64,000 bases of DNA from assembly GCF_008831285.2 (NCBI RefSeq), contig NC_045138.2:8060001-8124000 (forward strand). The letters are read 5' to 3'. Under the pieces are notes generated by a model, which ran no database searches, was not told where the DNA came from, and worked only from the letters and a program-made list of their open reading frames with translations. Position numbers and translations under genes: made by a program. Source of the DNA: Nymphaea colorata (lineage: Eukaryota). This document shows positions 30,781 to 63,851 of this stretch, in pieces. Positions within the stretch are counted from its first letter, which is position 1. Each line of letters opens with the position of its first letter.

Positions 30781-32004
30781 TAAACTAAAGAACAACTTCT
30801 TCTGTTGCAATGTATGGAGACTTTTTTTTATCTTCTCCATGAACTTGACGTGAGGCAAGAAGGATCGCTTAGGTCAAAATTATATGGATGTTTAAGTCTA
30901 GAGTGGAGGGTATAACCTTGCGTTGTGGGTTGCCCTTTGCCTCGTTGCCTTGTCGGATATTAAAGCAGCCTCGGACTGATCAACCATGTGCCGATGAAGG
31001 CCGGAAAGGAAACAGTGAGAAGGTAGTGATGGCCACTATTCTTCTCCTGTCATCTCTCTCTCACCGCCTCTTCTTCACATCAAGGCATATCTCTCTCTCT
31101 TTCTCTCTTCTGATAAGGACGACACAGTAATGCCAGCCTACATATCTAGATGGCCTGCAAGTTGAGTTTGAATACATGCACAATATAATATACATAATAC
31201 CATGCTTTATCGCCTATATATATATCCGTCAAAGCCATTGTCAACCATGGAAAAAGCTTGCCAATATCTCAAAATGAAACTCAAGCAATTATCAGGAGAA
31301 GGAAACTGAATCCTCAACCTATATAATTTGATAACATACATGAAACTCTTTCGAGTCGCTCTCTCCATGATGGCGATGCCAGCTTAATTTCCTTTGTTGC
31401 TTCTCACATCACACAATCAGTTCTGCGGGAAAAAGGCGAAGGTGGGAGTGGCTAATTAGCCACTTAGAGTCACTGTTCTGACCGACCGAGCCATGGCTGC
31501 CCTCTCCAGTCAATTGCCTGGTCCCGCACACCTGCCCGACCCCCTCCATTGATAAGGTTCCATCACCCCCAGCTGCCCCTCTGTAACAAAAAGACAAGGT
31601 CGTTCAACAGTACTTAGACGGCGACCTTGGGGTGAAGGAAGGAACTAGTCTGGGACCAATGAGTTGGTTCAGGCGGTCGTTCAGACCCATGCATTTATTG
31701 GCGTAAGATCGGAATCCGATCTGTTTGGGCTGGCATTTTTTAATGGGCCAAAACGACACATGAAAATTACTGTTTTAACTAAAGCATTCGTCCAAATATA
31801 TAGAGAAAGAGAGAGAGAGAGAGAGAAAGAGAAAGAGAGCCGATAAAATGGGAATATATAACAAAATTTGGGGACAAGAGGTCCCTTAAATACAAAAACA
31901 ATCCGCAAAGAACAAAATTACGCAAAAAACACAAGCAGGAGGAACAAATAAACAATACAATGCACAGAAAAATAGGAGAGAAGAGGAAAGACGAAACGAC
32001 ACAA

Positions 32005-35000
32005 TCACCCAACCGCAGTCAGGCGGCGGCGCTTTAACCGAATGGCGAACTGGATATCCCCTTGCACAAGACGAGCCACAGAATCTGGTGAAGAAAATGT
32101 GCCCCTGAAGACCCTGTTGTTGCGCTCCACCCAAATGCGCCACCAAGCTGAAATGAGCCACGGCCTCCAGACATGACCCCAGGAAGCAGTCAGGTGGGGG
32201 GGAAGGACTTACTAATAAGGGAAGGCCAAGTAGAAGCAAGGACACTAGAGCAAAAAGGGCAAGAAGTAAAAAGGTGGACCCGAGACTCAGTCGCAACAAG
32301 ACATAGGGGACACTGGTTAGCCAAACTGATGCCAAGGCGCTGTAGGTGATCAAAAGTGTTGATATGGCCAGTCAGAAGAAGCCAAACAAAAGCAATGGCT
32401 CGAGGAGAAGGGCCAGGAGACCAAAGAGACCGGGAGGAGTGACGCGACAGAGGGACCAAAGGAGGCCAGGTAGCAAGAAGAAAAAGTGAACTCACGGGTA
32501 GGTGAAAGGGGTCAGGATGGGGAAGTGAACGATGAGAGGTCAGCAAGGCGGAGAAAAAGAAGAAGGACAGAAAGCATGTCGGACCAAAAGTGAGAAGGGG
32601 AGATGTGAGATATAGAACTATGCCAGACGGTAGGGGAAGGCAGGTCGAATTTTGAACTAATGAATTGGGTGATGGGAGAATGTTCAGTAGCTAACCGCCA
32701 CCACCAAGAACACAGGGAAGACTCGCAAGCCCGACTAAGGTTGGTAACCCCAGCACCCCCAAGAAGACGCGGAAAGGCAACCACATCCCAATGCGCAAGG
32801 TGATCTGAAGGTCGATCACCATCCCAAACAAACTTACGAATAAGCTTATCAAACTTACGCAAGACAGCCACAGGAGGCCGAAAGACAGACAAAGCATGGA
32901 GAGGAACTGACGCAAGGCAGTGCTTAGCCAAAGTAATCCGACCTGGAAGAGAAAGCAGCTTTCCCTGCCAACACTGAAGGCGATCCGTAAGCTTCTGCTC
33001 CACCCCATTCCAAAAAGAAGGAGCAGGAGGCGACAACGTAATCTGAAGCCCCAGATAATCCATGGGCAGGCTAGTAGCCTTACACCCAAAGCAAGCTTCC
33101 GCGAGAAGTACCGTGGCCGGATCCGCGTGAATGAAGGAAAGGTGACACTTGGCGGAATTGATAGAAAGACCTGAGATGAGCTCAAAGACCCGAAGGATGA
33201 GCCACGTTCTCACAACCTGCTGGCGAGAAGCACTGCCGAACAGGAGAAAATCATCAGCATACTGAAGGGTGGAGAAGGACGGTAAGTGGGGGAGCGAATG
33301 GGGTGTGAGGAAGCCAACGACCGTTGCGTGATGGAAAAGCGCAGAAAAGCTCTCAGCAACAAAGTTGAAAAGCAAGGGCGATAACGGGCAACCTTGACGG
33401 AGGCCACGCTCGAGACAGAAGAAATCACCACACTTTCCATTGAAGGAAACCGCAAGCTGGGCCCCAGTGACAAGCGACATGATCCACTGCCTAAACGAAT
33501 GACCAAATGCAAGACGGGTGAGGAGGTCAGAAAGGAACTCTCAACTAACCGAGTCAAAAGCCTTAGAGATATCCAACTTCAAGATGAATGAAGGTAGCCG
33601 TAGACAGTAAAGGGAGTGAACAACCTCATTGGCTAGGACAACCGCATCCTGCAGACGCCGACCCTTGACGAAAGCAACCTGGAAGAGGTTAATGACTGAA
33701 GGCATGACAGGCGCAAGCCGCATAGAGAGCAACTTAGCAATAATCTTGTACGGCGTGCCAAGGATGGAGATCGGGCGAAAGTGGGTGACGTCCATAGGGT
33801 TAGGACGCTTAGGCACCAGGACGCAGGTAGCTTGATTGAATTCCTTGAGGAAAACAGAATTGGAGGCGAACTCATCACAAAACGCAAACACATCCGCGCT
33901 ACAAACCTCCCAAAAAGTACAAAAAAATTCGACTGGGAAACCATCAATGCCGGGCGCCTTACCCGAGCCAAGGGCCCAGACCGCGTTCTTGATCTCTTGG
34001 TGTTGGAAGGACCGCTCAAGAGCGATCGCACAAGAGACAGAGAGAGAGGAGAGGTGAAAATCCGGCAGCGTGGCACGGAAGCGAAGAGGTTTAGAGTAGA
34101 AATCCTTGAAATGAGCGCTCAGGGCCGGGAGGATGTCATCACCAAGAAAAATCCTGCCTCCGATACCCATGGACTGGAGCAACGTCTGACGGCGCCTCTG
34201 AGAGGCGGCCAAGTGGAAGAATCTAGAGTTCTGGTCCCCATGCGCGAGCCAACCCAGCCTAGAGCGTTGCTGCCAATGGATAGACTCCCTAATCCGCCAC
34301 TCCAGGGCAAGACACTGCAGACAAAGGAGACAAGAAGACTGATCCGCAGAAATATTATCAGAGGCCTGAAGGGACATGATCTCCTCATCCCAAACGACCA
34401 CATCCAAAAATTTGCTGCTCCAGAAAATGCGCTTCCAGGCGAGCGCCTCCCTCCTGATGGAGTGCAACTTCCGTGAGAGCCTGAAAGCAGCCCACCTACC
34501 ATTGACTGCACGAGCCCACCAATTAGGGACGGTAGCTACAAAGGATTCATCACGGAGCCACCAAATCTCAAAACGAAACCTGGCGTGCCCGATACCAGCC
34601 CTACCCCGAAGAAGGGAAAAGAGCAGCGGAGCATGATCGGACAAGTGCCTCGGGCCAAGAACCAAGGAGGATGAAGGAAAAGCAGAGAACAACTCAGGCG
34701 AGAGGAAGATACGGTCCAACCTACGATGGATCGGAGGGTTCCTATTATTAGACCAAGTAAACGTACCGTTAGTCGAAGGCACGTCAAAAAGACCAAACTC
34801 ATCAACGAAAGATCGAAAAGCAGACATAGACGGGCCAGAAGTGACAGGGGAGGAAGAGTCAGCAGGGCTAAGCAAACAGTTGAAGTCTCCGACCAGAAAC
34901 CAAGGGGAAGCTGCAAGCTGGCGAACCTGTTGCAGCTCAGCCCACAGTTGCCCACGCAAAGCCCCAACGCAAGGGCCATAAACCGCAGTAACCAAGACCG

Positions 35001-35298
35001 GACCATTAGGCCAAAATCCACTGAGAGAAGCAGAGATAGAGTACCTTTCGACATGCACAACAGCCCCCGTAAGGGGTGGAGACCAAGCCAGCAGGATGCC
35101 GCCCGCTGCTCCACAAGCTGGAAGGAACCCAAAGGACGGTTTGCGCAACAAAGTACGAACACAAGCATGAGAGATGACAGACATCTTGGTCTCAACCACA
35201 AAAAGCACCGAAGGCCCATGCTGACGGATCCAAGAAGAGAGATACCTACGCCGATAACGGGCACTGAAGCCCCGCACATTCCAACATGCAACCCTCAT
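32005..35298 (-). pseudogene. LINE ORF2 (endonuclease-reverse transcriptase), disrupted
   Basis: WNVRG, ETK, GDFN, RLDR and SDH (APE); KAPGIDG, FRPIS, KLDISKAFD, GLRQGCPLSP and QYADD (RT); CPLC...HLFTSC (zf-RVT); WWRIWVERNNRVF near the C-terminus. In-frame TGA at 33543-33541 (expected TGG) and two frameshifts near 32530 and 32200. No RNase H seen. Confidence 0.93.
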
Positions 35299-36760
35299 GG
35301 GGAAACCACGTGAAGCGACGAATGTCTGGCCGCCCTGGCGGCACCAGGAGGGAGGACGGAGGCTGCAGAAGCCCCAATCCTACGCAACTCCCACCGCAAC
35401 CTGGCCAGGCTGGAGCGGGAGACCGGTGCCACAGCGGCAGCAAAAGAGGAACACAACAAATCAAATTGCTCAGGCGAAAGAGAGACCTTAAGAGCGTCAA
35501 GCGCATCCGGGAGGGAGATGCCCAACTCAACATCCAACAAGGGGGCAACAGGTGGCAACCTATCGGGCAGGGAGTGACGACCCACAGGACTCGTGGTGGG
35601 GCCAGACAACTGAACAGGGGAGGACGATGGGGTAGAGGTGAACTCAGACTCAGACCGTAGGGCAGGGGAAAAAGAGCCAACATAAGGGATGCGGGAGAGG
35701 CCAGGGCTAACCGGTGGGAGAGGCAGGTAGGTGGGGTTTAGAGGCGAGCAGCGACTGAGTCTAGGGAGCAGAAAATGCAAGGAAGGCTAGTAAGAACTAA
35801 AGCTACTGTCAAAATAAACAGAAAAAACCCAAGGCAGATAGGCAAAGGAGGAGGTCCTGGGTGTAAGGGGGGGCATAGAGGGCCAGTAACCAAGGTAAAG
35901 AGCAACGTACAGGCAACGGAGGGAGAACGACTCACTGGGGGTGCCGAGACGCCAGAGGCCAAGACAACGCAGGCCGCAGTCAGACGAGAGCGAGCAACAA
36001 CAGCAGCCTCAAGGGGAAGACCCTCCGACGACGGGCGGGCAACCGAAAGAGACGGTGCGGACGACCGGACGTCGCCAAGGTCAGACTGAGCAGCAACCAG
36101 CAATGGGTCGGGGCAGCCCGAGGTGGACTCGCGTGGAGCCCCAGCTCGCAAAGCAGGAAAAGGAAAGGGCGAGCAGGGTACCTCAGAGGAGCATGGCAGA
36201 GAGCAGGCTAGACTCCTTCGCTGAGGAGAGGCTGGCGCCCGCGGTGAGGGAAGCAAGGGCGGAAGCTGAGAAGGCGGCAGCTCTACCACCGAAGAGCACT
36301 GGTGCGGCAGATCACCTGGCCTGAAAACCTGCGGAACCTGTACCGAAAAAGGAGGACCCCGCGTTCCAGGACAAGTAGGCCCAGGCCAAGGAAGTCTGAT
36401 AGAGCCAAAGAACATAGAGCTCTCGCCCAAAGAAGGTGACCGCTGAACAACTTGCGGAGGAACCTGGACCAAGAAGGAAGCAGTGACCGCTGCAAAACCA
36501 TGCCGTCGAGCAAAAAGGCGACGATCATTCTGACGAGCAGGAAAGCGACATCGAGAACACGTGACAGCCCGGCGGCCGTTCAAGGAAGCACACCTCTGAC
36601 ACCACCACTGGCCCCATCTGACGCGGATAGAAGCAACAGACCGGAGAAGGTGACGAAGCCTGGAAGCACGCCGAGAAGAGGGGACACACCACGGTGAGGG
36701 GGCTGGCCTACCAACGGAGACCACCTTGGGGAGCCTCGGCCGCAAGGAACAGTCGCCCAT
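35295..36760 (-). CDS. LINE ORF1, Pro/Ser/Arg-rich with RanBP2-type zinc finger; split into two frames (36760-35738 and 35786-35295)
   Basis: WWCQRCASLNGRRAVTCSRC fits W-x-C-x2-C-x3-N-x6-C-x2-C. The C-terminal ARLRWELRRIG resembles the RELxxL end motif of plant L1 ORF1s. The stop overlaps the ORF2 ATG (ATGA). Confidence 0.7.
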
Positions 36761-37599
36761 CTGCAGAAGGAGAAAACAACAACGCGCTGGCGAGAGGAAG
36801 GCCTGGAGGAGCCCGCGAGCATCTTTCAGCTGAAGTGTGCCGGCGAAAATGCAATTGAAGATAGTAGACTGCCAACTGAAAGACAATGCCTGCGATTAAC
36901 GAACCCCCTCAGGCGAGCAAAGAAAACCGATCGTCGCACGACAAAGCAAGCGATTAAGAGGGAAGGGGTTACCCGGCCTGATACCACAAAGACTAGGACC
37001 CCCAACCCAAACCCCCGAGGGCGGCCGCAAAGGCGGGGGAGGAGGAAGGGCTGCCATGACACCCCCCACAGTGCAAGAGTAAAGAAAAAAGGAACCTGTT
37101 TTCACACGCAATTCAACAAACAGTTACAGTGCACCTCGCTCAAGGTGTAGGGAGAGACGTCCCACGGCTTCAGCGCTCTCCAAGCGACAGAGAGGGCAGG
37201 GGGAAGAGCTGCATTGCTCGGGGAAAGGGGGGGACAATGCCGTGCGGCCCCAGACGGACGGCGAAGACGTGCGAGCCGGCGATGGGGGCAGACAGAGAGA
37301 AGGGCGGGCGGTGGGGCCGACGGGAGATAGAGAGGGCGAGTGGGGCCGGACGAGCGGGTGGTGGGGGCAGACGGAGAGACGGGTGGGCGGTGTGGTCGAC
37401 GGGAGAAAGAGAGAGCGAGTGGGGAGTAGGGGGAAGAGTTGGACGAGCAGGAGGACGGTCGGCGAGGACAGGCGGGCGAGAGAGGAGAGTGAGTGGTCGG
37501 GCGGGCGAGAGATGAGGGCGGTCGGGCGGCGAGGACGGGCGGTCGGTAGGCGAGGACGGGACGGGCGGCTTGGACGGGCGGGACGGGCGGGGCGGTCGG

Positions 37600-37639
<40 letters not shown>

Positions 37640-37698
37640 GAGAGAGAGAGAGAGAGACTTACATGCTCCGAGAGAAAGAGAAAGAGAGAGAGAGGAGA

Positions 37699-37966
37699 GA
37701 GAGAGTAAATTGAATGGTGACTCTGACTATCCCAAGCCAATTAGCTCACCTTTGAAGGTTACTTGATTTATCATCATAGACTATTGAGAAAAAAACAAGA
37801 AAACTATTGAGAAAAAAACAAGAAAAAATGATGGGTAATTTTGTTATATAGATTTCACAACTTTTCTTTTTTGTTTTTTATTTCAACCATCCATCACATT
37901 AGATCCGATGGTCTTCCTAACTGATTTGGGTGACTCTCAATAGTCATAATCATCATTCACTCTCTC
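37699..37966. mobile_element. Microsatellite-associated MITE next to the LINE 5' end
   Basis: Inverted ends GAGAGAGTAAATTGAATGGTGACTCTGACTAT / ATAGTCATAATCATCATTCACTCTCTC; internal tandem ACTATTGAGAAAAAAACAAGAAAA x2. Confidence 0.6.
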
Positions 37967-44620: not shown

Positions 44621-46336
44621 TATAGACATCCATGTTTTAGCCAAAACAGATTCAATTCAAGTCTATGAATCATGGAATTTCATAAATCCTATAATTAAAA
44701 AGTCCAAATGAGCTTACGGACCTTATCGAAAATCTCTTCTTGATTTCAACATGAAGAATGGATCCAGAGGTTGTCCAACATCTCCTATTTCTCAAAATCA
44801 ACAAACTAATGAAAGTCCAATTAAATTGTGCATGGAAAGGAAGATAGTGAAACGTGGATGAACATATCGTTCATTTTGTGAATGCATGCATACACTCACT
44901 CCACAAAAGCACTCAAGTACCTTAGCCAAAAACTTAAATGAGTCAAGTTAGAGTCACTACCATGACCAAATCATATTGTGACAAAGACATGAGTTCCTCA
45001 TTTACTTCAAGGCAAAAACATCAAAAATTTTAAAATCATTGCAAATTTGAGATTTTCAAAAAAGAAAATTCTCATGATGTCTGGACCTCCTATGAACCAA
45101 AATTGCCACAAAGAATCAATTTTTAATCCAAATCCACAAGTCATCCAAGGCCAAAATGAAAAATTTAAAATGCTCAGCCTGAACTCAATCGAAGGCTCTT
45201 ACAACCTAGTTTGAATGAAGCAACATTTCACAATTTTGGCTGGTTCTCAAAACCAAGGTTTCAAAATCAAGATTCCGGCCATTCAAATTGAGGTTCAAGC
45301 CTCAACCAAAAAAATTCCATATTTCCCAAGATCAAACCACCAGTCCTGACTTCTTCAAAAGCACTCAAGTACCCTAGCCAAAAACTTAAATGAGTCAAGT
45401 TAGAGTCACTACCATGACCAAATCATATTGTGACAAAGACATGAGTTCCTCATTTACTTCAAGGCAAAAACAACAAAAATTTGAAAATCATTGCAAATTT
45501 GAGATTTTCAAAAAAGAAAATTATCATGATGTCTGGACCTCCTATAAACCAAAATCGCCACAAAGAATCAATTTTTAATCCAAATCCACAAGTCATCCAA
45601 GGCCAAAATGAAAAATTTAAAATGCTCAGCCTGAACTCAATCAAAGGCTCTTACAACCTAGTTTGAATGAAGCAACATTTCACAGTTTTGGCTGGTTCTC
45701 AAAACCAAGGTTTCAAAATCAAGATTCCGGCCATTCAAATTGAGGTTCAAGCCTCAACCAAAAAAATTCCATATTTCCCAAGATCAAACCACCAGTCCTG
45801 ACTTCTTCAAAACTAATTTTTAAATTTTGGCCTTAAAAGAAAATCAAAATTTTGGTTCCATATCATAAGATTACTTCAAAAACAATTGTAAATTGGCCAA
45901 ATTTCAGTCATTCGGAGCCCCGATTTTTGACCTCCAAGAATTTCTCCAATCTAGTTCCAAATCCCAAATCTAAGCTATTTTCAAAATTGTAAATTGGCCA
46001 AATTTCGGCCATTCGAAGCCCAGATTTTCGACCTCTAAGATCCAATTCTCAACTCCAAAATTATAGTATCAAAACAACTTGCTAAACTTCAACTACCAGT
46101 TGCCAATTTCAGCTAAAATCTAATCTTCAATCCCAGAAGCAATTTATATAAACCACTGGAATTGAAAGCAAATTTCCGATCTAGTCTAGGCCAAGCTCCA
46201 ATTTTCAAACGAAGTCAAAATAATTTCAAGTACTTGCACAGGCATATTGGAGAAATAACTTGTCAAGCTTGAGAAAGCCTAGACTTTGGACCAATTACCC
46301 CTATTAAAGGTGGTAGGAATAGTCAGACCTTATACA
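44621..46336 (+). mobile_element. 3' part of a gypsy LTR, homologous to 62538-63760
   Basis: Collinear similarity by eye (e.g. GAGTCACTACCATGACCAA, TTTCAAAATCAAGATTC, CAAGCTTGAGAAA.CCTAGAC); truncated on both sides. Confidence 0.75.
44904..45812. repeat. 452-bp near-perfect tandem duplication
   Basis: Units 44904-45355 and 45356-45807 with CAAAA microhomology at the junctions; single copy in the homologous region at ~62822-63270. Confidence 0.95.
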
Positions 46337-56106: not shown

Positions 56107-56578
56107 TGTAAAAAGATATCTAAAAGAAGAGTATTTTTCTCACTTGAATAAATTACAACGAGTTGATACAAATATATATACAGAAAAGATCCACAATTCG
56201 TGGAATGAATAAAGGAAAGAAAAACTGCCGTATCTCCCTTTAGGTGATTTCAGCAATTTCAGCATTATCAACATCTTTAATGATTTTCAGCATATTCCTA
56301 AAATCACTTCTTGCTGAGACATTCTTTTTATGTCACCATTCTTAACGTCTCCAGCAATTTCCTTATTTTCCAGCTCGTGCTTATCTTTGTTGTCATCATC
56401 CTTAATGTCTTGAGCAATCTCGTTCTTAAATTCTCATCTTTCTGGGATGTTTTTATCTTTAACGTTTCCAGCTAATTTATTCTTATCAAGAAACGTTATT
56501 GCTGAGGTGCTCTGCCCTTTAACGTTTTTCTCAACGTCTTCAACTGATTTTATGGCTCTCACAGATTTACTCTTATCA
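56107..56578 (-). repeat. Copia 3' LTR (472 bp)
   Basis: About 22 substitutions and 2 small indels versus the 5' LTR by manual count (~95% identity). Confidence 0.97.
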
Positions 56579-59500
56579 TGCCCCCTCAAACTGGGTGGTG
56601 GGTGAACAATGCCCAGTTTGCATCTGAGATATTCAGTGGCAGATCGAAATAATGCTTTTGTAAAGATATGAGCAACTTGCTGAGAGGAAGGAACATATTG
56701 AGTAATTAAGGTCCCTAACACCACCTTCTCTCGTAAGAAATGATAATCGATGGCAATATGTTTCATTCTGGAGTGAAACACTGGCTTAATGCTAACTTGT
56801 AAGGCAGACATATTGTCAAAGTATAGCTGTGGAGGATCCGTTATACGGATGCCAATATCTTTGAGGATGAAGGAAAGCCATGTTAACTCAACTGCTACAG
56901 ATGCCATCGATCTATATTCTACTTCAGTTGCAGATCGAGTGACCGTTGGTTGCTTTTTAGCTGTCCACGAAATAGCATTCGTGTCGATGAATGTGCAAAA
57001 GCCAGTTGTGGATCATCGTGTCTCTTGATGCCCAGCCCAATCTGAATCAGAGTAAGCATGGAATCGAAAAACTGACTGGGGTGAAAGTAGACAACCAAGT
57101 TCTATGGTCCCATGAATATATCGAAGAATTCTTTTGACAAGCATAAACTGACTAACGAAATTCACACTATACGTGACATCAGGACATGTGAACGTGAGAT
57201 ACTGAAGGCCACCAACTAGGCTGCGATAGAGTGTAGGGTTAACAAATGGTGGATCTTCAGGAGGTGCCCAAAAATTCTGAACTAGAGGAGTAACAGCTGG
57301 TTTACAAGTTGTTAGTGCAGCATGTTCCAAGAGACTGTATGCATCTCTTTTGATTGAGAAAGAGACCTTGAGATGTTTGGAGAGCCTCAATACCAAGGAA
57401 GTGATGTAAACTTCTTAAGTCATTCATCAAAAACTCATGGTTAAGTTCAGTAATAAATTCTTGAATGAAATGAGTATTGTTGCCGGTCAAGATTATGTCA
57501 TCAACATATAATAACAAAATGATGGTTCCCTTGCTATGATGGCAGATATATAGAGACGAATCTAAGATGCTGCTAAAAAAACCTTTGGAAAGTAGAAAGA
57601 ATCTGAATTTATCATACCATGCCCTTGGAGATTGCCAAAGTTCATAGAGAGCTTTGTGTAGTCAGCATACATGATCTGGTTTGGTGGGGTCTTCAAAACC
57701 TTGTAGCTGTTCGACATAAACAGTCTCTTGTAACTCACCATGTAGAAATGCATTTTTGACATCGAGTTGCCTAATATCCCAATTTCGAGATAAAGCGATA
57801 GTCAACACAATGCGAATGGTGGCTGGTTTGATGACTGGTGAGAAAGTTTCCATAGAAAGAATCTGAATTTATCATACCATGCCCTTGGAGATTGCCAAAG
57901 TTCATAGAGAGCTTTGTGTAGTCAGCATACATGATCTGGTTTGGTGGGGTCTTCAAAACCTTGTGGCTGTTCGACATAAACAGTCTCTTGTAACTCACCA
58001 TGTAGAAATACATTTTTGACATCGAGTTGCCTAATATCCCAATTTCGAGATAAAGCGATAGTCAACACAATGCGAATGGTGGCTGGTTTGATGACTGGTG
58101 AGAAAGTTTCCATAAAGTCAATCCCTGGAATTTGGTTGAACCCATGAGCCACTAGATGATCTTTTAGTTGATCTAACGTTCCATCGCTTTTCAGCTTGGT
58201 CTTGAACACCCATCTGGTGGAGATGACATTCATATATGCAGTTTGGGGTGTTAGAGTCCATGTTTTGCACAAATTCAATGCTTCTATTTCTTCCTCCATG
58301 GCTTTTACCCATCCTGAATGTTTGAATGCCTCTTTGACTGTTTTAGGTTCCAAAGGAACTGGGAGAGCAAGGAAGTACTTTGGATTTGGCTTGATTATGC
58401 CATCCTTTGCCCTAGTGATCATGGAATGTGAGTTGATAGGAGTTGGTAACTACACATCGGATTGAGAATGAGGCATGAAATCCATGAGAGATGGCTCGAT
58501 GACCTGTTGAGAGCTGCTAGCATCTGTAAAATGAGAAGTGTTAGTGTCTGTAGCAAATGAGGAATTGCTGCTTGAAGAGGAGTCACGGTTGTCGTTGTGG
58601 CAACGGGTTCTAATGGAGCCATTATCAATTTCATCAATACAGCCAGACTTAGAAATTTCCTCAACTGACTGGTTATCGCCAATCCACTCGTTGTAGGTGT
58701 CGCCTTATTGAGAATAAGGCATTGCTGTAAATAAATTACCAGGTTGTTGAAAAGGAAATGTATTTTCATCAAAAACTACATTTCTGGATATAAAAATCTG
58801 ACTTGTTGGTGGATATAAACATTTATATTCTTTATGCGTTGAGTTATACCCTATAAAAACATAGGTTAAAGATCTAGGCTCCAACTTATTCTTGGAATAA
58901 TCTCGAAGGTATGGAAAACATCAGCTTCCAAAAACTCTCATGCAGCCATAATCTGGGTTCTTCTTGAATACAAGCTGAAATGGACTTTTCATTTTAAGCA
59001 TAGGTGTGGGCAGCCGATTGATTAACTATACCGTTGTAGAGAATGCTTCAACCCAAAATTTCACTGGCTTGCTGGCATGAAACATCATAGCAAGTTCGAG
59101 TTCAACTATAGTTTGATGTCTGCGTTTGACCATGCCATTCTAAGGAGGAGTTTTAGGACACACTTTTAAGTGTTGGATTCCATATTCTCACAAGTATGAA
59201 GCAAGCATATTACTATTAAATTCGCCGCCTTCATCGGTTTGAAGAATTTTGACTCTCTTCCCAAATTGATTTTCCACAAACTTGTGAAAAATTTTAAAAA
59301 TATCACAAAATTTGGACTTGAAGTGCATTGGATAAAACCAAATAAAATGAGTGGATTCATCAACGAATACAGCATAATACTTATATTGTTGAGATCCGAT
59401 GATTGGGGAAAGTCCTCATAGATCACAATGCACATGACCAAGGAATTCATCACAATGAATTCATCACAATGTTCTTTAATAGAAAGATATGGAAGATAAC

Positions 59501-61037
59501 ATGACTTAGCTAATTGACAACTGGAACATAAAATTCTGCTTCGAGATGGGCCAAGAATTCTAATGGCCTTTTTATTGACCAAAAACTCTACTACCTGCTG
59601 GTTGATGTGACCAAGGCAATGATGCCAAACTTCCTTATTTGCTCCACGAAATCTAACTAAGAAAAAAGCCTTGTGATCTCCTTAATTTTTTGACGTTGCT
59701 CTTACATTCTCCAGCATATAAAGTCCATCATGTTCGGTTCCAGATGCCACAATCTGTTGATTCCTCTTGTCCTTTACAAGAAAACCATTAGCAGAAAATT
59801 TAAAAATATATGACACGTCTGCTGTTAGTTGACTCACTGAAATTAAATTCTTTTTAATTTCTGGAACCGCTAAAACATTCTTGAGCCAAATAGAATTATG
59901 CCCATAGTTAATAATGGTATTGCTCACATGCATAATGTCAAGTTTCTGACCATTGCCTACCATTATTTTTTCTGATCCATAATATTTAGTGGAGACATTG
60001 AGATTACCTGCTTCAGATGGAACGTGGGCAGATGCTCCAGTATCTGGGAACCATTGTTGGTCCTGACCATCTGCTATCTTCATTGCAGCTAGTGCTTGAG
60101 GTACTTGTTTGGGCTGGAACATTTGATTAAAACGATGCCAGTAGTTAAGTGCAGAATGGTTTCTCTTTCTACAAATTTGGCACACGACTCCCTTTTGAGA
60201 GGAATCAAATTGATTATGATTCTCTCTTTTGTCGTTGTTAAAAGGAATACCTTGGCTGGCTTGGCGAAACTCTCGTTCCTTAGAATTGAACATCTGATTT
60301 TTATGTCCCCTATACCTTGGATTTTGAACACGCTGGTTCATAAAAGCCACCTGCGTGCCTAAAACATCTCCATACATACTTCTTACCGTCTCATGACTTT
60401 TAAGCAAGGCAATAACTTCCAAGTATGGTGGAGTTGGAGGACACATATAAGTCGTTCTAAAAGACTCATATTCTGGTTTGAGACCAATCAATAACCAAAA
60501 CACTTTAGATTGATCTGCAACTAGTTTTCCAATGATAGCAAGTTCATCACATATAATTTTGAAATTTTTGGTATATTCAGCAATACTTAGATTGCCTTTC
60601 GGATTCATCTGAAGCTTTTGCATAAGGAGCATTTCTCGCTCCTGTGACTCATAAGCAAATCTTCGATTTAAAGTATCACATACATGTTTAGAGGTTTTCA
60701 GGCCAACTACTAGCCCTAATATTTCTTCTGATAGGGTTCCTATGATCCATCCACGCAGCAACCGATCTGATCTTTGTCATGCGCTAAAGTCCAGATTCAC
60801 ACTTTGTTCAACTGCAGCAATATTCCCTGCGTTCTGACTGTTGCTAGGGAGATATCTATCAGCCATGGGCCATCGATAAAACCTGACATATCCTGACTTT
60901 CGATTAATCCTAGCACCTGCGTCTGCCATAAGAGAAAATTGGACTGGGTCAATTTGATGGAAACAAAATTGGCAACGTTCAGGTTGAAAGGATATGGGTA
61001 TTTGAGTGAAGCAGTCTACGAATTTTTGTGAGGCCAT
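56434..61037 (-). pseudogene. Copia gag-pol polyprotein, disrupted
   Basis: KLTQSNFLLW (gag N-terminus), CQICRKRNHSALNY (decayed zinc knuckle), WFPDTGASAH (protease), [64 protein letters not shown]. Multiple stops and frameshifts. Confidence 0.95.
57593..58112. repeat. 260-bp tandem duplication inside the copia RT
   Basis: Units 57593-57852 and 57853-58112 differ at 2 positions by manual comparison. Confidence 0.95.
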
Positions 61038-61060
61038 GGAATCGCAGCACTCTGATACCA

Positions 61061-61535
61061 TGTAAAAAGATATCTAAAAGAGAAGAGTATTTTTCTCACT
61101 TGAATAAATTACAATGAGTTCATACAAATATATATATAGAAAAGATCCACAATTCGTGGAATGAATAAAGGAAAGAAAAACTGCCGTGTCTCCCTTTAGG
61201 TGATTTCAGCAATTTCAGCATTCTCAACATCTTTAATGATTTTCAGCACGTTCCTAAAATCACTTCTTGCTGAGACGTTCTTTTTAATGTCACCATTCTT
61301 AACGTCTCCAGAAATTTCCTTATTTTCCCGCTCGTGCTTATCTTTGTTGTCATCATCCTTAACGTCTTCAGCAATCTCGTTCCTAAATTCTCGTCATGCT
61401 GAGACGTTTTTATCTTTAACGTTTCCAGCTAATTTATTCTTATCAAGAAATGTTATTGCTGAGGTGCTCTGCTCTTTAACGTTTTTCTCAACGTCTTCAG
61501 CTTATTTTATGGCTCTCACAGATTTACTCTTATCA
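61061..61535 (-). repeat. Copia 5' LTR (475 bp)
   Basis: Adjacent to the PBS; matches 56107-56578. Confidence 0.97.
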
Positions 61536-61540
61536 CACTT

Positions 61541-63851
61541 TTCCCCAAAATGAGCGGCATTAACACTGGTTATTGTGATATCAAGCCGTCTCACTTGAAT
61601 CAAATAGCAGCCAATGTTGCTGTCCTTAACTGTTAGCATCATTGTTTCTTAATTTAACCATGTTCATCTCAAGCAATGGTTTATTTACTTTACTAACAAA
61701 GTAGGCATTCGGTTGAGTCTATTGGAATTTCCTGCATGAGATATAGGAGGGGAAGTCAAACGTGGGGTGGGATTCTTCCTTCTATTTATTTTTAAAAGCT
61801 GGGAATGATGTCCAGCTGGGAGCTGTATGAAAAAACGTACATGTTAAAAACATATATGCATGTATTCTTGCAATTTTCACAACCATTCCAAACCAAAACT
61901 CTTTTTGAAAATTAGGAAACAGTATTTGCAGAAGCAGCCTATTCCCTAAACTAAAACCTGATTTGAAAGTCATTTCTTATGAAATTGCAATGAGAGGACC
62001 ATCATATCTTGAGTGGAAAGTTGGCTCGTTCACCTATGCGTTGAATGATCTAAACATGTATGTGAAAATAAACGAGTGAGTGAAGATAAATGAATACTCT
62101 TTTCCACGAACGGTCGGCAAGTTAAACTCTATAGCGCACCAAATCCATACCGTCAAGGGTTGGATCCACTCGAATCATGAATGTAATCTACCTTATGAAT
62201 GAATAGCAATCAAATTGAGCTCATCTTAAAATCAGCCAGTTTTTTATTCAAATGTACATTTCTGAAAATTTTCAGAAATCTCTATGACTTTGAAAATCAG
62301 TTTATCAAAATTGATGAAAATTTGAAAGCCTAAACCAGTTGGATTCAAAAAAAAATCTCTCTTGATCAGAATCCAAGTGCTTTGGCATCATTGATAGTCA
62401 AAGTCGACAGCAACAAAGAGAAATCAGATTGCTACAAGACCCTTTGGAAATACACTATTCAAGTCATTTCAATCCAAGTTAAAGTTTCAAAGGGAGAAAC
62501 TTTATCCAATTTATGAAAAGGAAAATTTCTCCATTTTTATGGACATCCATGTTTCAGCCAAAATAGACTCAATTCAAGTCAATGAATCTTAGGCATTCAT
62601 AAATCCTAGATTTTAAAAATCCAGATGAGCCCATCGACCTTGCTATAAAATCTCTTCTTGATTTGAACATCAAGATTGGGTCTAGAGGTCGTCCGACATC
62701 TCCTATTTCTCAAAATCAACCAATGAATGAAGTCCAGTTAAATTGTGCATGGAGAGGAAGAGATCGAAGCATGGATAAACATGTAGTTTATTTCATGAAT
62801 GAATGCATACACTCACTCCAGAAAAGTACTCAAGCAACCTAGCCAAAAATTAATTGAGTCAAGTCGGAGTCACTACCATGACCAAGTCATATTGTGACAA
62901 AAACTTGGGTTCCTCATTTACTTCAAAGTGAAAACATCACAAATTTTACAATCATTGCAAAATAAAGATTTTCAAAAAAAATCTATGATGTTTGGACCTC
63001 CTCTAAACCAAAATCACCACAAAGAATTGATGTTCAATCCAAATCAACAATTCATCCAAGGCCAAAATATAAAATTTAAAACCCAGAGTCTGAACTCAAT
63101 CGGAGTCTCTTCAAACCTAGTCTGAATCAAGAAAAACTTCACAACTTTGGCCGTTCCTCAAAACCAAAGTTTCAAAATCAAGATTCTGGCCATTCAAATC
63201 GAGGTTCAAGCTTCAACCAAATTTATTCCAGATTTCTCAGGATCAAACCACCAATCTGACTTCTCCAAACCTAATTTTTAAATTTTGGCCTTGAAAACAA
63301 ATCAAATTTATGGTTCCAAATCCTAAGATTAATTCAAAAACAATTTGTAGACCTTCAAGAATTTTTCCAAAACAAGTTTCAAATCCCAAATCCAAGCAAT
63401 TTTAAAAATTTTAAATTGGTCCAATTTCAGCCATTCCTAGCCCAAATTTTCGACCTTCAAGATCCAATTCTCAACTCCAAAATTCTAGTCTCAGAATAAC
63501 TAACTAGACTTCAACCACCTAGTTCCCAATTTGAGCCAACATCTGATTTTGAATCCCAAAAGCAATTTCTATAAACCAACAGAATTCAAAGCAAATTTCT
63601 AATCTAGACCAGACCAAACTCAAATTTCCAAACCAAGTCCAAACAATTCCAAAATCTTGCATAGGTATATAGAAGAAATAATGTGCCAAGCTTGAGAAAA
63701 CCTAGACCTTGGACTGATTACCCCAATTAAAGGTGGCAGAAGCTGTCAGGCCTCGTACCAATGGTGGATCTCTCTCAATGAAAATCTATTTCAAACAAAA
63801 TTCCAATTGTGTTGCTTCGTGCGACTCCTTGTTTGTGGGAGGGGTGCAACA
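61541..63851 (+). mobile_element. 3' part of a long gypsy LTR, probably continuing the sequence at ~49.7-50.9 kb and 54.8-56.1 kb that the solo LTR and copia interrupted
   Basis: Ends ...GGGAGGGGTGCAACA (63851), preceded by the CCTTGG.CT.ATTACCCC..TTAAAGG.GGCAG motif also found at the 3' end of the solo LTR; homologous to 44621-46336. LTR start not identified. Confidence 0.7.

Follow-up and report, generated by a model that had tools for sequence, protein, structure and literature searches.

The window analysed here comprises 64,000 nucleotides of the water lily Nymphaea colorata (RefSeq assembly GCF_008831285.2, contig NC_045138.2, positions 8,060,001 to 8,124,000 of the forward strand; coordinates are counted from the first letter of this stretch) and contains, on its minus strand, what by its domain content is a dead copy of an L1-type long interspersed nuclear element (LINE). 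The first open reading frame of this element (ORF1) encodes a short Cys4 finger, W52-C71. A RanBP2-type zinc finger in a LINE ORF1 had been proposed at 36548..36607 from inspection of the letters (the original prediction); the finger was found to be real and to lie at exactly these coordinates, on the minus strand, in the ORF1 of an L1-type LINE. As a divergent RanBP2-like finger it marks out, in an L1 family of water lilies, an ORF1 layout for which the literature searched has no description. The element and the finger-bearing part of ORF1 are laid out as follows.

31802..37705, minus strand: dead L1-type LINE copy including (TC)n at both ends, with ORF1, endonuclease (APE), reverse transcriptase (RT) and zf-RVT on one strand; 5' limit uncertain
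35738..36760, minus strand: ORF1 open frame of the window copy, with 340 codons and a stop codon (35738..36895 when taken from stop to stop)
36476..36760, minus strand: arginine-rich N-terminal domain, residues 1-95 (isoelectric point 12, 21% Arg, net charge +19)
36539..36613, minus strand: extended finger, G50-x-W52 to C71-x2-P74; alignments to RanBP2, RNF31 and TAB2 fingers span the Gly, the Trp, the four Cys, the Asn and the Pro
36548..36607, minus strand: finger core W52-C71, with the exact signature; codons W52, W53, C54, C57, N61 and C68 without non-synonymous variants at ≥8%

The finger core was read at window positions 36607..36548 in the translation of the frame 35738..36760(-) and has the letters WWCQRCASLNGRRAVTCSRC; the stretch of ORF1 around it reads ...SIRVRWGQWWCQRCASLNGRRAVTCSRCRFPARQ.... 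The PROSITE-style signature that we take to be that of RanBP2-type fingers (PF00641), W-x-C-x(2,4)-C-x(3)-N-x(6)-C-x(2)-C, occurs once and exactly, at W52..C71, in the spacing W-x-C-x2-C-x3-N-x6-C-x2-C claimed by the original prediction, and is flanked by a Gly two residues before the Trp and a Pro three residues after the last Cys (G50-x-W52 ... C71-x2-P74). When all six frames of the 64-kb window were scanned, the full pattern gave this one match only, as did the looser C-x2-C-x10-C-x2-C; none of 2000 first-order Markov simulations of the 5.9-kb LINE region produced the full pattern. The frame that carries it is open over 385 codons from stop to stop, for which the chance calculated from the base composition of the strand is about 5e-4, and the other two frames over ORF1 are broken every 40-98 codons. 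The closest database proteins are six gene models of Nymphaea thermarum that derive from other copies of the element (P0002-P0006 and P0012); the ORF1 open frame is common to P0002, P0003, P0005 and P0006.

Relatives of the finger were sought with phmmer in a library of 1.84 billion representative proteins. Thirty-seven hits were obtained at E ≤ 0.001, four of them members of the family itself; among the 33 non-family hits, 32 pass the 27-bit cut-off of PF00641, with as many as 10 matched stretches of finger per protein, and the remaining one (P0025) repeats the same signature without a Pfam match. P0025 has five near-identical fingers and one divergent finger of the RanBP2 signature and still gives no Pfam hit at E ≤ 0.001, which shows that other divergent fingers also escape PF00641. 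Sources of three non-family hits are a marine-protist transcriptome set (P0007), a Logan assembly (P0010) and NCBI (P0025). The best non-family matches are multi-finger proteins 27-39% identical to the query, no close donor being among them, so that the suggested capture from a host splicing-factor gene was not borne out. Among solved structures (PDB), phmmer with a 60-amino-acid query gave 39 hits at E ≤ 10, of which 33 were RanBP2/NZF-type fingers (RanBP2, RNF31, Nup153, TAB2, ZNF265/ZRANB2, RBM5, RBM10 and TRABID) and six were others (two C1 domains, RNF4, two L40e and bL9m). With a 35-amino-acid query, 29 of the 42 hits were RanBP2/NZF fingers, which also filled ranks 1 to 13. AlphaFold2, run without an alignment, returned low-confidence helical models (pLDDT 51 for 75 and 65.7 for 35 amino acids), and a Foldseek search of the PDB with these models gave 0 matches.

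The LINE family is very high-copy in Logan contigs of five organisms (runs X1, X2, X3, X7 and X13) and widely diverged; in X1 alone, 507 contigs align over 1.2 kb of the LINE. Variants of the finger zone were taken from the contigs on 36520-36640 (73-105 contigs per run in four runs) and rows were counted when they reached a share of ≥8% in at least one run, the listed zone being about 36551-36608. Of 25 variant rows, 13 were synonymous, where 26% would be expected (P = 0.005), and all 13 third-position rows were synonymous (13/13). The summed shares of synonymous rows were 3 to 5 times those of non-synonymous rows in X1, X3 and X7, and 1.4 times in X13. W52, W53, C54, C57, N61 and C68 had zero non-synonymous rows at ≥8% in the four runs, and C54 and N61 showed synonymous rows only; the Cys, Trp and Asn residues within the zone are thus conserved among copies, as the original prediction demanded. 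A non-synonymous row was present in 0/5 signature codons versus 8/14 other codons (P = 0.04) or, with W53 counted as a signature residue, 0/6 versus 8/13 (P = 0.017); most non-synonymous rows were low-share C>T or G>A changes and the common ones were mild (S59T, V66A, A58T). Contig depth is maximal over the WWCQRC codons.

The same pattern was seen when the 40 best-supported differences between the window and the family majority were classified: in codons 1-87, seven of eight were synonymous (P = 8e-4), versus 8/26 in codons 88-340, which equals the expectation without constraint. The sole non-synonymous difference in the N-terminal domain is R76C (majority Cys76). Residue 76 (window 36533-36535) lies five residues past the last ligand and is Cys in the family majority and in P0005, Arg in the window. 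P0005, an independent Nymphaea thermarum copy, keeps the finger: its N-terminal domain (residues 1-95) is 86% identical to that of the window, and residues 41-76 differ only by R72H and R76C. A protein homologue search with ORF1 returned P0002-P0004 only, none of them finger-bearing, and with residues 40-170 P0004 only; the 140-amino-acid N-terminus gave no match among proteins of 77-245 amino acids. In a metagenome scan the protein pattern had 597 matches, of which 0 were confirmed, and a 27-base degenerate pattern had 0 matches. The protein library searches found no protein outside Nymphaea thermarum with the ORF1 N-terminal domain as such, which says little on the range of the family because proteins of transposable elements are often masked from annotations.

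Downstream of the finger domain, the reading of ORF1 depends on the following positions.

35877..35882, minus-strand frame: one-base difference; an extra G (plus strand) in many copies shifts the ORF1 frame (contig tables)
35787..35789, minus strand: TAG in the continuation frame, TGG in most copies (contig tables)
35295..35786, minus strand: ORF1 continuation as in other copies, including a conserved C-terminal block of ~65 amino acids; stop TGA 35297..35295
35295..35298, minus strand: ATGA, in which the ORF2 ATG (35298) overlaps the continuation-frame ORF1 stop; minus-strand letters CCATGAGGG

Residues 96-294 of ORF1 are rich in Pro, Ser and Leu. The description of everything outside the finger as low-complexity is incomplete, as other copies continue to the conserved C-terminal block, and the last 46 codons of the window ORF1 are out of frame relative to them. 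The extra G at 35877..35882 accounts for 144/165 of the depth in X3, 667+288 (about 955)/1366 in X1, 13.1/19.8 in X2 and 70/209 in X7, and P0002 changes frame at this site. At the TAG, 35788 T>C has 1211/1569 in X1, 13.1/13.1 in X2, 46/63 in X3 and 137/322 in X7; this codon is read as Trp in P0002 and as Met in P0006. From 35786 to the TGA at 35297..35295 the continuation frame is open in the window, and it matches five of the six gene models at 59-79% identity (P0006 79%, P0004 75%, P0012 61%, also P0002 and P0005). The block of ~65 amino acids just before ORF2 (window 35298-35500) is well kept in five gene models and 75-79% identical to P0004 and P0006; Pfam has no family for it. Because many copies have the extra G and TGG for TAG, and because gene models match the continuation, an intact ORF1 protein (ORF1p) of about 488 amino acids is likely, in which the finger domain at the N-terminus would be followed by a fast-evolving middle rich in Pro and Ser and by a conserved C-terminal block.

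Its start is likely the Met at 36760, since the window has a TAA at 36898..36896, since contig depth drops steeply just upstream of 36765, where many copies diverge, and since only 2/5 of the differences upstream of this Met are synonymous. A start at the upstream ATG at 37057, where P0004 and P0005 begin, was rejected on these grounds. An alternative frame for the middle of ORF1 was likewise rejected, as it is stop-filled in the window and the gene models use the open frame; it is puzzling that in the middle (35741-36499) 13/26 of the majority differences are synonymous in another frame versus 8/26 in the open frame. Pfam assigned no family to ORF1, to its stop-to-stop extension or to the two ORF1-ORF2 frames. 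RRM, DUF4283 and zf-CCHC are lacking, in agreement with the original prediction, and at E ≤ 10 neither ORF1 nor the continuation frame has the RRM and/or DUF4283 with CCHC knuckle of a type I plant L1 ORF1p.

The remaining parts of the element are given below in the order of its minus-strand reading.

37603..37705, minus strand: (TC)n run on the 5' side of the element (simple-repeat listing)
37272..37599, minus strand: C-rich tandem repeats upstream of ORF1, possibly the 5' untranslated region (repeat listing)
33541..35298, minus strand: first part of ORF2, with APE (about 34633..35283) and the start of RT; ends at the in-frame stop 33541..33543
32512..33540, minus strand: second part of ORF2, remaining RT; the same frame resumes past the stop
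32193..32690, minus strand: ORF2 C-terminal zinc-binding domain in a shifted frame, zf-RVT at about 32247..32435 (PF13966, E 1.9e-12)
32005..32127, minus strand: end of ORF2, ORF2 frame regained, stop 32007..32005; matches P0004 residues 507-546
31802..31839, minus strand: 3'-terminal (TC)n run, without a visible poly(A)

ORF2 lies downstream of ORF1 on the same strand and was matched in Pfam by Exo_endo_phos (PF03372, E 1.2e-18), RVT_1 and zf-RVT. Its best match in the PDB is human L1 ORF2p (E 1e-16), and L1 endonucleases are also among its best solved relatives; the L1-type assignment is made because of these domains and relatives. An ORF2 with N-terminal APE, RT and a C-terminal Cys-rich domain, preceded by an upstream ORF1, is the arrangement of the L1 clade. 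ORF1 and ORF2 are also linked in the gene models P0002, P0004, P0005 and P0006. Other copies part from the window sequence upstream of about 36775 and 36890 (contig tables). The GC content of the LINE is 52-57% versus 33-39% in the flanks. LINE sense strands are ordinarily A-rich; that of the window element (window 32000-37600) is A-poor, with 10% A in ORF1 and 14-15% in ORF2. On the sense strand (TC)n stands at both ends and a poly(A) tail is absent, which could mean that the element inserted into a TC microsatellite or that it makes a (TC)n tail of its own; the family may target microsatellites.

Elsewhere in the window, a Ty1/copia long terminal repeat (LTR) retrotransposon with gag, gag_pre-integrase and RVT_2 in broken frames was found at 56110-61535 on the minus strand, with two LTR-like direct repeats of ~470 bp that are 94% alike. 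A dispersed repeat of ~1.3 kb is present at 44729-46097 and 62647-63519 (83-89% alike), and its copy at 44729-46097 contains an internal tandem duplication of 452 bp.

Compared with known RanBP2/NZF fingers (PF00641), the ORF1 finger has the same spacing of Trp, four Cys and Asn, the Gly two before the Trp and a Pro after the last Cys; it differs in lying below the reach of Pfam, in having Gly instead of an aromatic residue after the Asn, Gln instead of Asp before the Trp (Asp being usual in the fingers of the local profile described below) and a shifted Arg pair, and in being single and located inside a retrotransposon ORF1. Type I plant L1 ORF1 proteins combine RRM and/or DUF4283 with a CCHC knuckle (zf-CCHC_4), according to excerpts of PMC5203782. 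The water-lily ORF1 resembles them in lying 5' of an APE-RT-zf-RVT ORF2 and in encoding a basic protein with a small Cys-rich finger and an expected role in binding the element RNA, but has no CCHC, RRM or DUF4283, and its finger is of the C4 kind, carries the RanBP2 signature and is N-terminal. In the five-type ORF1 scheme, as given in parts of PMC5203782 and PMC4120745, it would be an 'unclassified' Type V. In BNR-type plant L1 elements an RRM stands in place of the zinc finger (excerpts of PMC5203782, citing Heitkam et al. 2014); a plant L1 lineage that swapped the nucleic-acid-binding module of its ORF1 provides a precedent, the module being an RRM there and a RanBP2-like finger here. The ORF1 proteins of CR1, L2 and Jockey elements carry a PHD finger or an esterase (excerpts of PMC4120745) and likewise have shuffled modules, including non-CCHC zinc fingers; however, they belong to another LINE clade, in animals, and their finger is a PHD (Cys4-His-Cys3 histone reader). 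The ORF1 modules listed in PMC4120745 are CCHC, RRM, PHD, Tnp22 and esterase. Searches of the full-text literature, not extending to Repbase or Dfam, turned up no description of a LINE ORF1 with a RanBP2-type finger. The term 'RanBP' is absent from the main text and two of the three supplement files of PMC5203782 (ORF1 domains, 503 genomes) and, by term search, from the main text of PMC4120745.

We consider it probable that the ORF1 of this water-lily L1 family carries a selected C4 finger of RanBP2 signature in its Arg-rich N-terminal domain, a predicted zinc ribbon that would serve as an RNA-binding module replacing CCHC, RRM and DUF4283. Zinc binding by the four Cys, a zinc-ribbon fold and binding of the LINE RNA in building the ribonucleoprotein particle (RNP) are predictions. 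Binding the RNA of their own element is the established task of LINE ORF1 proteins, and among RanBP2 fingers there is a class (ZRANB2, RBM5) that recognizes single-stranded RNA; the putative LINE-RNA binding of the finger is proposed because of this role of ORF1p and because of the basic charge. In the mechanism envisaged, purifying selection would have kept the finger in the Nymphaea L1 family; the finger and its Arg-rich flanks would bind the LINE RNA and so build the RNP; the finger would do the work for which plant L1 ORF1 proteins usually have a CCHC knuckle, RRM or DUF4283, a replacement of the RNA-binding module that may reasonably be inferred; and ORF2 could be translated in a coupled way, by termination-reinitiation at the ATGA overlap.

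A number of points weigh against this reading. PF00641 was not matched at E ≤ 10 with queries of 340, 385, 60 or 33 amino acids, an outcome that the original prediction had itself named as refuting the RanBP2-type identity; what stands of that identity is that the nearest relatives are of this type (32/33 in the large library, 33/39 and 29/42 in the PDB). In multi-finger hits of the library one query finger is matched several times, and the E-values (1e-9 to 9e-4) add these matches up; therefore the specificity of the hits outweighs the numbers; single-finger E-values in the PDB are only about 0.01 (best RNF31, E 0.01, 12/25 residues identical with the 35-amino-acid query). A local profile of 170 unique fingers from proteins hit in the large library matched a single one of the 1186 pieces into which the six frames of the window were divided, that of ORF1 (score 15.9 bits, E 5e-4; next piece 5.0 bits), a score well below the Pfam cut-off of 27 bits and from a profile that is somewhat circular, its source proteins having been picked by likeness to the query. 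The residue after the Asn is Gly62 (N61-G62-R63-R64), retained in most copies, where 153 of the 170 fingers have F, Y or W, and the Arg pair stands one place earlier than in most of them. An aromatic residue in this position contacts RNA in the RNA-binding RanBP2 class, where it stacks on guanines, and what we take to be the mark of that class (aromatic after the Asn, then Arg-Arg two residues later) is not present in the finger; because the aromatic is missing, reading of GGU RNA in the manner of ZRANB2 is doubtful. As to conservation, the contig tables drop rare variants, align only copies at least 80% alike and count copies instead of events; the figures exclude C71, because the variant listing spans only about 36551-36608, and full finger sequences are in hand for the window and P0005 only, the other conservation evidence coming from the contig tables. 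The silence of Pfam is explained by a match to true fingers that is real but weak (15.9 bits). Since signature and kinship are positive and the Pfam profile is negative, the ORF1 finger is best filed, as far as its residues tell, as a divergent RanBP2-like zinc ribbon and not as a textbook member.

A selected zinc ribbon might alternatively act through protein contacts, with Ran-GDP or the nuclear pore in the nuclear entry of the RNP, or with ubiquitin. The Nup153 and RanBP2 fingers bind Ran-GDP or the nuclear pore, NZF fingers bind ubiquitin, and in the PDB the best matches are indeed RanBP2, followed by RNF31/HOIP, TAB2 and Nup153, ahead of RBM5, ZRANB2 and RBM10; the missing aromatic after the Asn would also fit. 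However, ubiquitin-binding NZFs need Thr-Phe/Tyr directly after the second Cys, where the ORF1 finger has A58-S59 after C57 (Ala-Thr in many copies, S59T being common), the finger is embedded in a very basic stretch, and the large library returns N-F-x-R-R fingers as its best hits, so that we regard such a role as unlikely, though contacts to Ran or to pore proteins stay a serious rival. A little less likely still is that a generic C4 knuckle or ribbon was born within the LINE and converged on the RanBP2 signature without homology. The lack of a PF00641 match speaks for it, as do weak matches to C1 domains (C1_2, E 0.054; RASSF5 C1, E 0.0055) and to zinc ribbons of another type (in NCBIfam only L40e, E 0.019), and the language-model look-alikes, all below 0.9, which where named are zinc ribbons of many families, including a streptophyte cluster (0.79, 0.81) with PF00641 on 41% of its members. 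Convergence is opposed by the library search, unbiased in this respect, in which 32 of 33 non-family hits carry PF00641, and by a match that includes G-x-W, the Asn and the trailing Pro besides the four Cys. A C1 domain (of the PF03107 / PF00130 kind) requires a pattern of two His and six Cys, and the ORF1 finger lacks the His as well as the last Cys ligands.

That a Cys-rich, low-complexity frame produced the pattern by chance, with no function attached to it, is very improbable: ORF1 is indeed rich in Cys (18 among 340 residues) and odd in its composition, and the window copy is dead, but the simulations never produced the pattern, the synonymous excess and the untouched signature codons recur in four runs, and P0005 retains the finger. 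The reading of the finger as a selected, divergent RanBP2-like ribbon with a probable part in RNA binding is accordingly the one that we prefer. A wider proposal is made tentatively, as possible though somewhat short of probable, namely that the family represents a sixth kind of LINE ORF1, in which RRM and CCHC were lost, a single divergent RanBP2-type ribbon is combined with a novel C-terminal block, RNA would be bound in a new way or the particle docked to Ran or the pore, and an A-poor, GC-rich sense strand, the ATGA and (TC)n ends complete the picture.

No part of a LINE is understood less well than its ORF1 protein, which is a known swapper of modules (CCHC, RRM, PHD, esterase). Annotation pipelines that rely on RRM, CCHC and DUF4283 profiles overlook the ORF1 described here, and PF00641 overlooks its finger. 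The abundance of the family in several water-lily genomes offers ample natural variation for a study of non-synonymous and synonymous substitution rates (dN/dS). If the finger binds RNA, it would represent a new mode of RNA recognition for this class of fingers, one that works without the guanine-stacking aromatic residue; in the case of binding to Ran or pore proteins, the finger would hint at the route by which plant LINE particles enter the nucleus.

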